This document shows positions 35,901 to 43,320 of a stretch of 48,235 bases of DNA, piece by piece (position 1 is the first letter of the stretch; each line of letters opens with the position of its first letter). The DNA is from Chiloscyllium plagiosum (taxonomy: Eukaryota). A program made the position numbers and the translations under genes. Location of the stretch: contig NC_057754.1 of the NCBI RefSeq assembly GCF_004010195.1, positions 12,102,760 through 12,150,994 on the forward strand. The letters run 5' to 3'. The notes under the pieces are model-generated. The model saw nothing but the letters and a program-made list of their open reading frames with translations, had not been told where the DNA came from and made no database searches.

Positions 35901-38900
35901 CTGGCTAACTCTCAAAAATGCTGGCTTCTTTTAACCAGAAAAATTAAATCATCTTACTGGTTGATGTTATCAAAACACTAAATTCAAATTCGATTGGGCT
36001 TTAGTGTCCTGGGGCATAATTTAAACTAATTGGTTAAAATTCAAACTGTGTGAACATAGCAGCCAAATGTTACGTACTTTAAATTTTCCAGTAAAGTCTG
36101 AGACTGTTAGTCAATCACATGACTAGTGCCTGCAAACTCTCAGTTCTAAACAGTTTTCATTCTCTCTCAAACGTTCAATATGCGCCTTAAACATCAAAAC
36201 ACCTCCCCACTTAAGAAAGAAATGAACTATCATAATGAAAAGATGGCTTCATTTTATTCTAATTCTTCAGCCCCTTAACATTGGTATCTGTTCAATCTGT
36301 CTATACTTTATATGTTCCATCTGCAATAACCCATCTGATTTTACATTCTTACAACCTGCAAAATGCATGATTTTAAATTAAAGGTTGTATCACAAGACAC
36401 CAATGGAATCGTCTCGTATTCTTATCTTTAAATCGTTCTAAGAATGTAAGATTATTGTGATCCGGATCCACAACTGTCTCCCACGCATTCGTGACATAAA
36501 CACTAAAATATTGCAAGGCCAGTATCAACCTAAAAAAATTCCTTTTCGTTGGTAGAGTAGTTTCCCTGGTGGGTGTTGAGTTCCTTTGAAAAGTAACCAG
36601 CAAGCCGTATAATTCCATCATCATCACACTTTATCAGCCCAGCACCAACTTCTATGTCACTCGCATTGATCTTTGGTGTTGCTAAAACCGGTGTGGTGGT
36701 TAATACTGATTTCACATGGTCAAATGCCTCCTGACATGGTTCTGTCCAGGGATTTTTTTGTGTCCTTCTTCAGCAAACCTGTTAGCGATGCCACTATACT
36801 GTTGAAATTTGGAGCATTCTTTCTGGAGAACCCCCTCAGTCCCAAAAATTGAAGCATCTCTTTCTTCGAGGTTGGTCATGGAAATTCCTTGATGACCTGC
36901 CTTTGCGTTCCTTGGGGGTCAACCTTCCATGACCAATGTTATGCCCCAAGGAAGTCACCTCTGCTCTCGCAAATTCTGTTTTCTTTATGCTGAACTGACA
37001 GTTATGCTTCTCTTAATCCCTCAAAGAACATTGCCAACTGTACCATGTAATTTTTCCACGACTCACGAAAGATGACTGCATCATCCAGATAGACTGCATA
37101 AATTGTTAACCCAACCCCAACTCTGTACATGAATCTTTGGAATGTGGTCGGCACGTTTATTATTCCAAAGAGCATCACTTTAAATTGAGGTTGCAAAATC
37201 AGAAATTTATTTCCTTGTCTGTGATAAAGGTACCTATCAATAATCACGCAATTAGTCGAACTTTGTGTTGGAATTAGTTTGTCCAACTTTCTCTATACAG
37301 TCCCTCCAATCATGACATTAGGCACGAGTCCAATCAGTTATGGTGTTGACTTTCTGATAGTCCACAGAAAATCGTTGACTCGCGTCAGGTTTGGCAACGA
37401 ACACAATCGGTGAACTCCACTCATTCTGACTCAGGTCGACGATGTCTTCATTCAGCATTGCCTTCACGTCCTTTTGGACCTGTGAGGCTTTGAAAGGATA
37501 GAGTCTGTCGGGGTGCTGCTTTATTGGAACGGCATTCCCTACTACTACCTCATGCACAATAGCATTCGTCCACTGAACGTTTTCCTGCATATGTCGTCAT
37601 ACTGTGGAACAAATCTTTCAACTGCGTTCTTTGCTCCTGAGACAGATAGTTTACAAATCTATCCCACTCCTGAAGGACATCCTCATTGTTTAACATATTT
37701 TGAGACACATTGAACTTCACAACTTCTGGACTGGATTCCTCACTCTGCGGGACAATAGCTACTACCAGTTTTCTCTAGTTCCCTCAGTCGATTAAAATAC
37801 GATTTCAATACATTCACAAGACATACCCGACACAGAGTTTTTACTGTGCAGCAGCTTGACCAGATATTTTGCTTGACTCAACTTTTTTTTCTAAATTTCA
37901 TGTGGAATACTAAACCAGGCCTTGGAGCGAACTGCTGCCACTGGAAACAATACTAATACTTCATCCTCACGGGAAAACGCCTGAATGTCAGAGATTTTAC
38001 CTGTCACCTGCTTCACTCAATGCTATGCCATCTTCAGGTGCTGGTTAGCTCATTCACCTACATGTTTTAATGTCTTCCTCAAATTGATACATAATCCAAA
38101 CATGAGATCTCTGAATTTCACTAAATTTCAAAGGCACTCTCACTTCGTATCCGAATATTAACTCCAGTAGAATAAACTGAGTAGATTTGTTTGGGGCTAC
38201 TGTAATGGCAAAGAATCATAATGTGATACATTTATCCCAAACGTTCGTGCAATCCTGGAAGTGAGCTCTTAATATGGTCTTCTGGGTCTGATGTCATCTT
38301 TCTAAAGCTCCTTGGATTCAGGACGATTCTCACGTTATTTAAATTGCTCTAGCCTTAGTTATCCATGACTTCCTTGAACAGCCAGGCAATAAAATTAGAC
38401 CCTTGGTCTGACTGAATCTCTCTGGGTAGCACATATCGCGTGCAAAAAGCTATTAACCCCTCTACCATCCTTTTTTTCCTTAATACTCTGGAATGGAATT
38501 GCCTTCAGAAACCTAGTAGACACATCGGGTTATGGTTGGCAAGAACTGGTTCCCATTTCTAGTTTTTGGGAGGGGAACTATATAATCAATCATATCCGGT
38601 GTGAAAGGTTCTTCAAATGTGGGAATTGACAATAAACATGTTGGTTTTATTACTGCCTATGGCTTACCTCCATTCGGCATGTACTACAAAAGTCAACCAA
38701 TCCTTATGCATTGCAGGTGAACAGAAATTATTTTGTACCTTATCCTGAGTCTTCTATACATCTTGGTGACGTCCTGCTGGTAGTTCATTTGTTACTTGTC
38801 TGTGTGCTACCAGCAACACTTCTGCCCATTTCTCCTCTGCAGCCACCTGACTTGGTTTCCATTTTCTTCTTAAGGTTCTATCTTTAAGATAATAAGACTC

Positions 38901-39144
38901 AGGAATACTCTCTGCCTCCTTTTCTGAGTATGCATAAACATCAGGGCTAAACGCTTCTGCCTGACCCCCTGCCTGTTCAGGTACTTCTTGCACCATTACG
39001 TCAAACATGGTCTCTGCCAACTAAACGTCAGCTTGGATGTTGCTTCTTACGGGAGAAAGTGAGGTCTGCAGATGCTGGAGATCAAAGTTGAAACTTTATT
39101 GCTGGAACAGCACAGCAGGTCAGGCAGCATCCAGGGAACAGGAG

Positions 39145-39180
39145 ATTCGACGTTTCGGGCACAGGCCCTTCCTCAGGAAT
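39145..39180 (-). ncRNA. Minimal type I hammerhead ribozyme motif
   Basis: Reverse strand reads attc-CTGAGGA-a-gggc-ctgt-gccc-GAAA-cg-TC-gaat, with 4-bp helices I and II and a GUC site. Confidence 0.75.
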
Positions 39181-39395
39181 GAGCAGAGAGTGTTCAGCAG
39201 GAGAAGATAAAAGGTAGGGAGGAGGGACTTGGAGGAGGGGAGTTGGAAATGTCTTCTTCTTGACCTCTCCGCCTCCATCCTACTCCCACCTATCACCCTC
39301 ACCTTGACCTCTTTCCACCTATCACATTTCCAACGCCCCTCCTCCAAGTCCCTCCTCCCTACCTTTTATCTTCTCCTGCTGAACACTCTCTGCTC

Positions 39396-39431
39396 ATTCC
39401 TGAAGAAGGGCCTGTGCCCGAAACGTCGAAT
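39396..39431 (+). ncRNA. Minimal type I hammerhead ribozyme motif
   Basis: attc-CTGAAGA-a-gggc-ctgt-gccc-GAAA-cg-TC-gaat. Predicted cleavage after 39427. Confidence 0.75.
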
Positions 39432-40544
39432 CTCCTGTTCCCTGGATGCTGCCTGACCTGCTGTGCTGTTCCAGCAATAAAGTTTCAACTTTGATATCCA
39501 AATGAATCCAACAAGAACTGGACCAAGCATATGTGGTACTCATAATCTTCTTCATCCTAAGTATACGCATGATTTTACTACAACTGCTAAGTATTTCATC
39601 AGTAATATTTTCAGCAACATAACACAAAACATCGCAGATAAGAAAAACTGCAGCATATTAACATGCCAAATTTCCCCTAAAGTAAATGCATTAAAATTCC
39701 ATCAAATTTGACAATATTGTTATGTATTTGGCTTTAAGGGGTTAACACGTAGGGGGTTCCATACAACAGCCAAGCAGGGTGAGATCAATAGTTGTGATGT
39801 TGAGAAGATATGCTCTTCTTCATTAGGGTAAATAAAACCACAGAAAGTAGACAAAATCAAACACAAAATATTGCTGAGGAAAGGAGTGAACAAAGACAGA
39901 AATGGGAACTATTTAAATGTAAATCTATGATTCGCTCCAGTAATAATATCTAACAATATTCAATATCTAGGATCATACCAAAAGAGTACTTTGAAGTATT
40001 AAAGGGATTTTCTGCTATCTAGTGATCTCTGAGGCATGAAGTTTCCCTTTCTTGATATGTGCAAGATCAAGACAAACACTAGGCATACAGTAACAGTGAT
40101 ATCACCGCAGGGAGTTGGCAGCCAATTACACTGAAGTATTCTCAAACAGCAAATCAGAAAGTAAAATGCAGTAAAATCTTCTACTCAATTAAAATTTCCA
40201 CAGAGTAAATACAAATCATCAGTGATACACATGGGATTAAAGTAGCTGAAATATCATAACTTTTTTTTAAATTTGAAAAAAACATTATTGCCATAATAAT
40301 GGCAAAAAAGCATCCCAGTGATATAACATTAGATTTCTATGAGTAACTATTGAGTTATTAAAATTAAATTGCATTTATATAGTAACTGTTATGGCTGCAG
40401 TCTTCTTCTTGACCTCTCCGCCTCCATCCTACTCCGACCTATCACCCTCACCTTGACCTCTTTCCACCTATCACATTTCCAACGCCCCTCCTCCAAGTCC
40501 CTCCTCCCTACCTTTTATCTTCTCCTGCTGAACACTCTCTGCTC

Positions 40545-40580
40545 ATTCCTGAGGAAGGGCCTGTGCCCGAAACGTCGAAT
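40545..40580 (+). ncRNA. Minimal type I hammerhead ribozyme motif
   Basis: attc-CTGAGGA-a-gggc-ctgt-gccc-GAAA-cg-TC-gaat. Predicted cleavage after 40576. Confidence 0.75.
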
Positions 40581-41739
40581 CTCCTGTTCCCTGGATGCTG
40601 CCTGACCTGCTGTGCTGTTCCAGCAATAAAGTTTCAACTGTTGCTTCTTACACCATTACTTCAAACATGGTCTCCGCCAACTAAACGCCAGTTCAGATTT
40701 TGCTTTGTGCTGTGATTTATGATCGTGATGTAGTGTTTCTACACAGTATGGGAAAATTGCATTGTATTTTTCTTTTAACTCCTCTGTTCCCTGTTCTTCC
40801 TTGGACTTTTCCACAACAAAGAGTGTCACTCCGACTTGGATCTTGCTAAATCGTTCCTAATTGTATTCCTAGAACTGACACTCTGTTAATCACTCCCACT
40901 GTTACTTGCCCAGTCTTGAGTTGGCAATCAAACTTGATGTTACATAGGGGAATGGTAACTTTCTGTCACTCTGTCCCCAAAATTACCACTATCGGATAAC
41001 AAGTAAGAAAGAGTACGATTAGAGACTGGTTTGATTCTGTACCTCTCAAAATTATAACTTCTTTGGCTCCCCCGCCCTGTTCTTCCTGCGTAAACTTTAG
41101 CCACAGAGGCAAATCATTTATGCAGATCAGACACTAATTCCATACCCAGCACCTGCCTCGGCTATGCACTCTTCTGCAGCTCGTCCAATTTTTTTTCTTC
41201 AGGTTTCCTTTACTACTTTCGCTAATACCACTGGCTTAGCATCTTTTACCTCACCTTTTCCCAAAGTACCTTTCTTTAACAAACAGCACTGTGATTTATC
41301 TGTACCACTTTACCACATTGAAAACATCTGAAGCCTTTCACCTCCTCTTCTATTCTCTTGGGCTTTTGTTAGAACCTAGGGTAAAAATTAACAATTTTCT
41401 TTACTCTTTGTTTCATGGTGTAGGATCTCCCCTTCTCCAAATTTCTATCCCTCACAAGAAGAAATTCTTGCCGGAAGCTATGCGTTGCCTAATGCACTAA
41501 TTTTTACTCATCTGCCATGTCCGCTGATCTTCTTGAGCTTTCTGTTCATTCCACATGAATTCTTATCATCACTGGACGTGAGTATTTAAATTCTCCAGCA
41601 GAATAAGAGCTCTTAGATCCCCATATGTCTTATCTATTTGTAAGGCCCTCACCTATCTGTCAAAGTCAATTCTTTCAAACACAACTTAAGTCTGACCTGG
41701 TTCTTTCTTTGTGTTTTGAATCGCTGTCTACTCGCTTCT

Positions 41740-42549: not shown

Positions 42550-43320
42550 TGGAAAGGATAGTAAAGAAGGCATTTGGTATGCTTGCCTTTATTGGTCTGT
42601 GCAATAAGTATAGGAGTTGGGAGGTCATGTTGCAGCTCTATAGGACATTGGTTAGGCCACTTTTGTAATACTGCACTCAGTTCTGGTCACCCTACGTTTG
42701 GAACGATATTGTGCAACTTGAAAGGATTCAGAAAAGATTTACAAGACTGTTGCCGAGATTGGAGGATTTGAGCATTAGGGAGAGGCTGAATAGGCTAGGG
42801 CTATTTTCCCTGGAGCATCAAAGACTGACAGGTGACTGTACAGATGTTTATAAGATCATGAGAAGCATGCATAGGGTAAGAAACAAGATGGTGGAGTCCA
42901 AACTAGAAGGTAGAGGTTTAAGGTGAGAGGCAAAAAATTTGAAGGGGATGTATGGTGCAACATTTTCATGCAAACGGTCGTGCGTGTATGGAATGAACTG
43001 TTCGAGGAAATGAGAGCTTTTGCCCGAAAAATTGATTTTCCTGCTCCGCGGATGCGGCCTGACCTGCTGTGCTTTTCCAGCACCACTCTAATCTAGACTC
43101 TGGTCTCCAGCATTTCCAGACCTCACTTTCGCCTGTTCGACTAAATTGTGGATTCTGGTACATTCACAACACTTGAAAGGCTTCCGGATGTGTACATGTT
43201 TAGGGGGATATGGGCCAAGTGCTGACAAGTTGGATTTGATTAATTTAGGATATCTGATCAGCAAGGACGAGTTTAGACCGAAGGGTCTGTTTCTGAACTC
43301 AACAGTTTTATGATTATGTG
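42550..43320 (+). mobile_element. Decayed CR1/HER1 LINE 3' fragment
   Basis: LERIQKRFTRLLPRLEDLSIRERLNRLGLFSLE and a 3'UTR ccgaagggtctgtttc. Confidence 0.85.
43010..43135 (+). mobile_element. Penelope pLTR fragment inserted in CR1
   Basis: ttttgcccgaaa...cctgacctgctgtgcttttccagc...cagacctcactttc is homologous to 1800-1915. Confidence 0.75.

Follow-up and report, generated by a model that had tools for sequence, protein, structure and literature searches.

What is a 1588-bp insert, bounded by an exact duplication and carrying three pLTR copies with hammerhead motifs, doing inside a decayed retroelement of a shark, and how was it put together? The window, meaning the whole stretch of DNA analysed here, comprises 48,235 nucleotides of Chiloscyllium plagiosum (C45:12102760-12150994 in a genome of 3.56 Gb and 101,977 contigs). 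A first-pass annotation, made from the letters of the window, took the insert for a retrozyme-like element. On sequence grounds we conclude that it is a real feature, and that it is one shortened member of a non-autonomous, Penelope-mobilised family of ~300 copies. The parts to which the text refers are as follows.

36530..37292, minus strand: RT and RNase H of the host element, a decayed LTR retroelement
39038..39050: left target-site duplication (TSD), 13 bp, TGTTGCTTCTTAC
39051..39500: hairpin head, made up of arm, loop and left repeat
39051..39252, minus strand: inverted pLTR arm, subfamily PLE-A, ending in a tail of ~35 nt
39149..39176, minus strand: minimal hammerhead motif of the arm, CUGAGGA variant
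39251..39495, plus strand: left direct repeat, a pLTR and part of the inherited head
39400..39427, plus strand: minimal hammerhead motif of the left repeat, CUGAAGA
39494..40395, plus strand: captured host DNA, the first 0.9 kb of a 2.9-kb cargo, from the donor on contig C10
39494..39505: the C10 donor's own TSD, inside the captured DNA
40395..40639, plus strand: right direct repeat, the cap pLTR, ending at the tail-less site
40549..40576, plus strand: minimal hammerhead motif of the cap, CUGAGGA
40639..40651: right TSD, 13 bp, TGTTGCTTCTTAC, its first T common to the cap

The insert and its family

Much of the first description of the insert holds. The 13-bp duplication around the 1588 bp is exact, the inverted pLTR with its tail is present, and the three hammerhead cores (CUGAnGA...GAAAC-GUC) are found as motifs at 39400 and 40549 on the plus strand and at 39176 on the minus strand. 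The two sense cleavage sites, 39427 and 40576, follow from these positions and lie 1149 nt apart. The two 240-bp direct repeats (39251-39490 and 40400-40639) align with two differences, at 39287/40436 and 39404/40553; the CUGAGGA variant, common to the arm and the right repeat, is private to the window's copy. The core is AT-rich (GC 0.33) and has no recognisable ORF, the longest ATG ORFs of the whole 2912-bp cargo being 76 and 69 aa. Other details had to be changed. The captured host DNA runs from 39494 to 40395 instead of 39501-40399, and the cap is joined to it with 1 nt of microhomology. The repeats had been given the same 5′ breakpoint; the right one aligns to the native pLTR from -153/-154 and the left from -149, the right thus reaching 4-5 nt deeper. 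Since the left repeat starts at an inherited fold-back junction found at 192 loci, the near match of the two 5′ ends is due to chance. The second repeat is the far end of the window's copy, made separately.

The core had also been called unique. The pLTR/core junction has 302 exact matches in the genome (control, 0), and a search with the core gave 321 candidates, all 40 of those scored being 100% identical. A family with different TSDs had been foreseen and is present; the repeat-core-repeat spacing is private to the window's copy. We read 131 copies and the donor among the 302 junctions. Length was one ground for choosing the copies, save on contigs C1 and C2, where all 31 were taken (cargo 59 to 2912 bp, median 717). 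Every copy among the 131 has a pLTR head, then cargo from the same base, and then its own cut point: cargo lengths span 59-2912 bp and none is repeated save 2912, which is shared by 27 full-length copies. One hundred copies extend to cargo 1410. Copies drop out at a rate per base of 0.00078 in the interval 0-1410 and of 0.00073 in 1410-2910, with a mean of about 1.3 kb. All 10 gap-free long copies end at 2910-2912 with unlike sequence after that point, and no two gap-free full-length copies have the same sequence beyond 2912. It should be noted that 18 of 28 long copies run into N gaps with their true ends unseen, which counts against the explanation that we prefer. A direct repeat of the cargo start, as tandem units would have, was absent from all loci read up to the 60-locus set, and no tandem array was found in the window.

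TSDs of 10-18 bp were found at 47 of the 60 loci of the first set, and TSDs at 35 of 52 and 12 of 20 loci (one mis-assigned) of the others. That 36 of 132 loci had none in the scans is also counted against the preferred explanation. At 17 of 60 loci there is a TSD and no pLTR at the right end, and the second repeat is often replaced in other copies by other PLE pieces. In many copies the closing piece is, in place of a pLTR, an antisense stretch of the PLE ORF that abuts the TSD (L030, L034, L035, L050, L149, L152-L154 and others).

The daughters show no cargo mismatch in about 255 kb (82,838 + 58,238 + 114,479 bp). The first of these comparisons took L049 as reference, with L055 cut by hand at 1548, where PLE-A sequence begins; the single mismatch in the 114,479-bp comparison belongs to the donor. 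Private variants do occur in arms (17 in 9061 bp), caps (23 in 5549 bp) and left repeats (1 in 7906 bp), two loci having been left out. Either mixed templates or collapse of repeats in the assembly would account for variable arms and caps beside an identical cargo, and collapse may be the cause of the perfect identity; it would also blur the pattern of variants among arm, cap and left repeat. Given these two possibilities, the age of the family is recent and can be put no finer. The first-pass annotation was right in seeing a young, non-autonomous element that carries captured host DNA and is mobilised by Penelope, as the family and its TSDs bear out.

Donor loci and a chimeric cargo

Long copies hold an older PLE-B arm with its tail at cargo 1401-1745. 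Seven of 30 distal loci begin at this inner PLE-B head, without cargo 1-1400, and constitute family B, whose head junction occurs 125 times in the genome. The family B donor was found by its TSD pattern at C7:22,329,050, as an inverted PLE-B insertion with a 14-bp TSD. It supplies cargo 1746-2912. Its flank does not end at 2912: CA/CT repeats come next, followed by single-copy DNA. The insertion has plus-strand exons on both sides, one of laminin G on its left and several of EPTP on its right, which places it in an intron of a laminin-G/EPTP gene that we take to be TSPEAR-like. Between the assembled C7 donor and the daughters there are 8 substitutions and a 14-bp indel, and between the donor of a third family (family C) and its daughters there are differences at 4 positions, so that the direct templates were other alleles or intermediates, which we count against the preferred explanation.

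Cargo 1-1400 has its donor on contig C10 near 63,560,937, minus strand, which came to light on reading 52 further loci and not by pattern. There, a short PLE-A stub with a 12-bp TSD is followed by 1.4 kb of host DNA and by an inverted PLE-B insertion with a 16-bp TSD. The stub has neither an arm nor a CUGAnGA core. Hits of the A-donor pattern (L112, L113, L167, L168, L209-L213, L218) proved to be unrelated or ordinary PLE insertions. No gene was recognised among the top exon candidates in 60 kb at the C10 donor; a C-terminal fragment of an endogenous-retrovirus integrase (L278:8197-8873, minus strand) lies about 22 kb from it.

The cargo of the window's family, family A, agrees with C10 up to a point within the PLE-B arm, and the two have a private variant at cargo 1473 in common; from 1596 it matches the B daughters. 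Judged by these matches, family A combines DNA of two chromosomes, with the joint inside pLTR sequence common to both; its intact heads, which the C10 donor lacks, were gained likewise. We considered growth by a family-B copy landing beside cargo 1-1400 and rejected it in favour of a template switch, since the C10 donor has its own TSD-flanked PLE-B insertion. The variant at 1473 (L049, L250; donor and all daughters read) changes a C-G to a U-G pair in stem II of the inner PLE-B hammerhead.

Family C has a third cargo, with 7 junctions and nested lengths of about 180 to 2760 bp. Its donor, on contig C12 with a long right pLTR, escaped the search by pattern and was located by reading loci. It lacks the B-type head junction that the daughters carry; of the remaining six loci shown, five either have a B-type head or were found by means of one. 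The family C cargo (L202-L208, L214-L217) includes a stretch led by a splice acceptor, which to us resembles, presumably, a Harbinger Myb-type exon.

Heads, ends and a probable route of synthesis

The heads are shared among cargos. The two commonest PLE-A head junctions occur at 192 loci (the window's head, with its fold-back near 39251) and at 310 loci. Thirty loci with the window's head comprised 18 with cargo A, 10 with the head alone and 2 others, and 30 with a head of 225-nt loop comprised 10 with cargo A, 7 with another cargo, 2 alone and 11 other or unresolved. A fourth cargo stands behind the 225-nt-loop head (L314, L316, L318, L331, L336, L338, L339), mostly visible for 44 bases before an N gap interrupts it. 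Flip-flop of hairpin ends as in parvoviruses was discarded, since neither of the two main head loops mirrors the other.

The ends follow a simple rule. Where a pLTR is present at both ends, one is tailed and the other stops at an internal site, in 71 of 71 typed copies: 22+8 of 60 (Fisher 1.7e-7), 21+9 of 52 and 10+1 of 20 (read from the output), with none alike; the remaining loci had no right-end pLTR or no TSD. Four of 90 tail ends continue 6-10 nt past the tail into native PLE sequence. At one locus (L195/L074), two head-and-cargo units lie back to back within one TSD, from which it follows that both ends can be primed on separate templates. That arm and cap come, as a rule, from one RNA molecule was rejected: one shared private variant (the window's copy, 2 of 185 motifs) speaks for it, about seven other copies have unshared private variants, and one polymorphic site is concordant in about 11 copies and discordant in 8 (read from the output). 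Four of 20 directly joined caps (L023, L028, L040, L043) begin 28-35 nt upstream of the hammerhead core, possibly at a PLE-A transcript start.

The enzymology of a related element offers a frame for these data. According to the excerpted report on the Poseidon PLE PAc (Frangieh et al., 2024), its RT in vitro cuts and extends both strands and has two start sites flanking the tail; hammerhead cleavage is unnecessary and a dimer is predicted (PMC11167929). The choice of start site is without strand bias in vitro in the same excerpt, which we count against our explanation (PMC11167929). PLEs often have the tail at one end only (Craig et al., 2021, PMC8557442), and the available portion of that paper describes the origin of their tandem and inverted ends as undefined (PMC8557442). 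In the shark, pieces of a partner PLE are found in the form of a GIY-YIG match at the cut-off, in frame upstream of the same pLTR, and an RT fragment below the cut-off (E 0.00019), for which an atlas look-up gave no match. None of 25 loci, many with gaps, had an intact full-length partner ORF, again a point against the preferred explanation.

The family was probably built by Penelope RT: pLTR RNAs would serve it as templates when it primes at the two ends of a staggered cut, and it would pass from one template to another by way of the pLTR sequence that they have in common. The scheme would begin with what the donor loci record: the flank of the C7 PLE-B insertion, up to the (CA)n tract, copied into family B, and cargo 1-1400 carried at C10 between the PLE-A stub and the inverted PLE-B insertion, each with its own TSD. 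Family A then follows C10 into the PLE-B arm and leaves it by 1596 for the C7 lineage, presumably through a switch. By analogy with the start site in the excerpt of PMC11167929, the inverted arm (39051..39252) would be the start of the strand that copies the cargo. Synthesis would set out from the head, cross the loop and the left repeat and enter the cargo, its template being antisense to the written cargo. It would break off either at a random point (after about 1.3 kb on average) or where the template has its 5′ end, at 2912. A start site within the inner PLE-B arm was dropped, the ends showing no pile-up there. The other end of the target would be primed separately, at the other pLTR start site, to give the cap, with near-blunt joining. 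Finally, and this is the weakest step, the template RNA might arise from a promoter inside the 2912 end, so that full-length copies could become new sources.

The direction of synthesis comes from the heads. The head junction stands at the start of 20 of 20 full-length copies and of 51 of 51 non-donor loci in the 52-locus set, and no headless cargo copy was seen among the long copies and non-donor loci read. Because every long copy reaches the head and a headless class is lacking among the copies read, the direction is most likely fixed as starting from the head, and this needs a template antisense to the cargo. Such an RNA would be antisense to the C7 host gene, which we count against the explanation, and no promoter for it was identified. 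We take the stop at 2912 to mark, putatively, where an RNA made from an internal promoter begins; alternatively, (UG)n may block RT.

The same direction and the same switches could also arise if the cargo were copied from genomic DNA, the cDNA invading a homologous pLTR and extending on the chromosome. The switch points do lie within pLTR homology, and PLE capture retains introns in the part of PMC3846280 available. Such invasion would, however, have had to use one lineage 302 times among at least thousands of PLE loci (there are 2173 candidates for the GIY-YIG stretch alone), to stop hard at 2912 where the donor continues, and to be followed beyond 2912 by something different in all gap-free full-length copies. 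We regard copying from DNA as unlikely.

Already disfavoured, and quite improbable in our estimate, is reverse transcription in the opposite sense, from the cap towards the head through random 3′ ends, on a sense read-through RNA from the left pLTR or on host pre-mRNA. The left repeat is sense on the window's strand, the orientation of the C7 host gene agrees with such transcription, and all 20 cargo/cap joints scored have microhomology of 0-2 nt. Yet every cDNA, up to 3.4 kb, would have to be finished, and headless copies were not seen; PLE copies are usually 5′-truncated, as the excerpt of PMC8557442 has it.

Beyond the switching RT that we prefer for this family, a wider picture may be sketched, to which we give an even chance. 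Penelope RT would be a two-template machine whose tail site primes one target end and whose internal site primes the other, and which hops between RNAs that share pLTRs, sense or antisense. Old insertions would become joints that stitch unlinked host transcripts, and self-promoting non-autonomous elements would snowball, taking up first the C7 cargo, next the C10 cargo and last the interchangeable hairpin heads, to hundreds of copies in the genome of a vertebrate.

Hammerheads and known systems

The motifs have the features of minimal type I hammerheads: a short stem I, a 4-bp stem II with an unpaired 5′ nucleotide and a palindromic minimal helix III. A scan with Rfam found no hammerhead at E<=1; what it did match were miRNAs, driven by the hairpin and below the gathering score. 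The call is made from the pattern and from the min-HHR description in the excerpt of PMC4209133. For the G variant, carried by arm and cap, a different fold is predicted. In the prediction for the head, a 177-bp hairpin forms (-374.7 kcal/mol, z -30.8), which would bury the left and the inverted hammerheads on either strand.

According to the first-pass annotation, cleavage at the two sense sites could free a monomer or circle of ~1149 nt, and one may ask whether such an RNA is the unit of spread. Two intact sense motifs do stand at this distance, the left one can form stems I and II unaided in a folding prediction (-7.7 kcal/mol, z +1.4), and min-HHRs may act as dimers (PMC4209133, excerpt). 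Against such a unit, the spacing is private to the window's copy, tandem cargo is absent, and none of the copies has its end at cargo 1456, the cleavage site of the inner PLE-B arm (the nearest ends are 1438, 1445 and 1451). Moreover, none of 20 directly joined sense caps starts at the cleavage site, the hairpin is predicted to bury the motifs and the cap variant to misfold. We consider spread by such a circle very improbable. Since ends at cleavage sites and tandem cargo are lacking and the hairpin would bury the motifs, the 1149-nt circle is at most a by-product of the window's copy; the insert is likely not a circular ribozyme RNA element, and hammerhead cleavage likely lies outside its cycle. 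Sequencing runs of organism A contained 0.63-0.89 of the words and those of organism B 0.36, with no RNA run among those listed; our reading draws no evidence from them. Least probable of all is a collapsed repeat pasted by the assembly into many gaps, which 101,977 contigs, gaps starting at the same base in 18 copies and zero cargo mismatches might suggest, but cut point, cap and TSD (10-18 bp, found in 47 of 60) differ from copy to copy, and the donors have their own TSDs and differ in sequence.

The nearest known relatives of the family are captures in Adineta vaga, where pLTRs mediate the capture of host DNA by Penelope elements (Arkhipova et al., 2013, PMC3846280). In the excerpt of that paper, as here, host DNA, including non-coding DNA, lies between two direct pLTRs and one inverted one inside a TSD and is moved in trans. 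The shark family likewise has an inverted 5′-truncated pLTR with a 30-40-bp tail at one end, a TSD round the whole unit and host donors. Two direct pLTRs and an inverted one within a TSD are a layout with a precedent in this rotifer (PMC3846280). The captures described in that excerpt are single events, whereas in the shark one cargo has ~300 copies nested from one end, is chimeric from two unlinked donors and has heads in common with several cargos (PMC3846280). With EN+ PLE units and Poseidon the family shares an inverted 5′-truncated copy, an often one-sided tail, two RT starts and the cutting and extension of both strands (PMC8557442, PMC11167929). It differs from what these excerpts describe in the one-tail rule (71 of 71, whichever side the cargo head is on) and in two ends made mostly from different templates; switching by homology onto antisense host RNA is absent from the portions of PMC8557442 and PMC11167929 available. 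The comparison also drew on excerpts of PMC4209133 and PMC6431247.

Non-LTR retrozymes resemble the family in being non-coding and pLTR-related, in having type I hammerheads and in depending on a PLE enzyme (Cervera and de la Pena, 2020, PMC7229834; Li et al., 2026, 10.64898/2026.07.22.740005; both as excerpted). These retrozymes are tandem 170-400-nt units expressed as circles, whereas the shark family is dispersed, of variable length and without tandem cargo (PMC7229834; 10.64898/2026.07.22.740005): neither tandem hammerhead units nor a fixed monomer of about 170-400 nt was found, the cargo being 59-2912 bp. The window's copy also resembles the LTR retrozymes of plants, in which two hammerhead-bearing direct repeats enclose a non-coding stretch of 600-1000 bp (Cervera et al., 2016, PMC4918200, excerpt). 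The latter have a type III hammerhead, Gypsy PBS/PPT and a 4-bp TSD (10.64898/2026.07.22.740005, excerpt), and we found the minimal type I motif and TSDs of 13 bp in the window's copy and 10-18 bp in the family. Unlike in LTR retrozymes, the repeat pair is no fixed feature of the shark family.

Carriage of upstream host sequence by a non-autonomous element, followed by re-amplification, is familiar from the 5′ transduction groups of SVA, and inverted ends from a second priming event are familiar from L1 twin priming. The shark family differs from both in its enzyme, in drawing its second end from a second RNA and a defined internal start, and in joining cargos by homology.

Our searches of a literature that was mostly open-access, with Repbase outside its scope, turned up neither a PLE cargo family that is amplified and chimeric and swaps heads nor, within the same scope, PLE hammerheads in cartilaginous fish. 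The family amounts to a natural tracing experiment for PLE end formation, with known donors, switch windows, drop-off, a one-tail rule and a sharp template end, and these features make direct predictions for the existing in vitro system (PMC11167929, as excerpted). It is also a route by which a vertebrate genome could copy and fuse host DNA of different chromosomes, and such cargos would escape repeat annotation or be mislabelled in it.

Lastly, some features of the window itself may be recorded. The insert had been placed inside a Gypsy pol. RT and RNase H of a decayed LTR retroelement are indeed found there on the minus strand, and a weak integrase zinc-finger match (E 0.027, below the cut-off) lies between these domains and the insert. 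Across 36530-41400 (minus strand), the integrase of the host element apparently lies upstream of RT and RNase H (a weak H2C2 match, motifs by eye), and an integrase ahead of RT/RNase H is the order of Gmr1-type Gypsy elements. A zinc-knuckle-like motif lies near 41300. An older tandem duplication of ~59 bp, 87% identical, straddles the insertion site (38984-39045 and 40644-40705). Further PLE pLTR remnants with hammerhead-like motifs occur at 1708-1915, 22660, 43013-43133 and 2677 (minus strand), one of them as an inverted pair.
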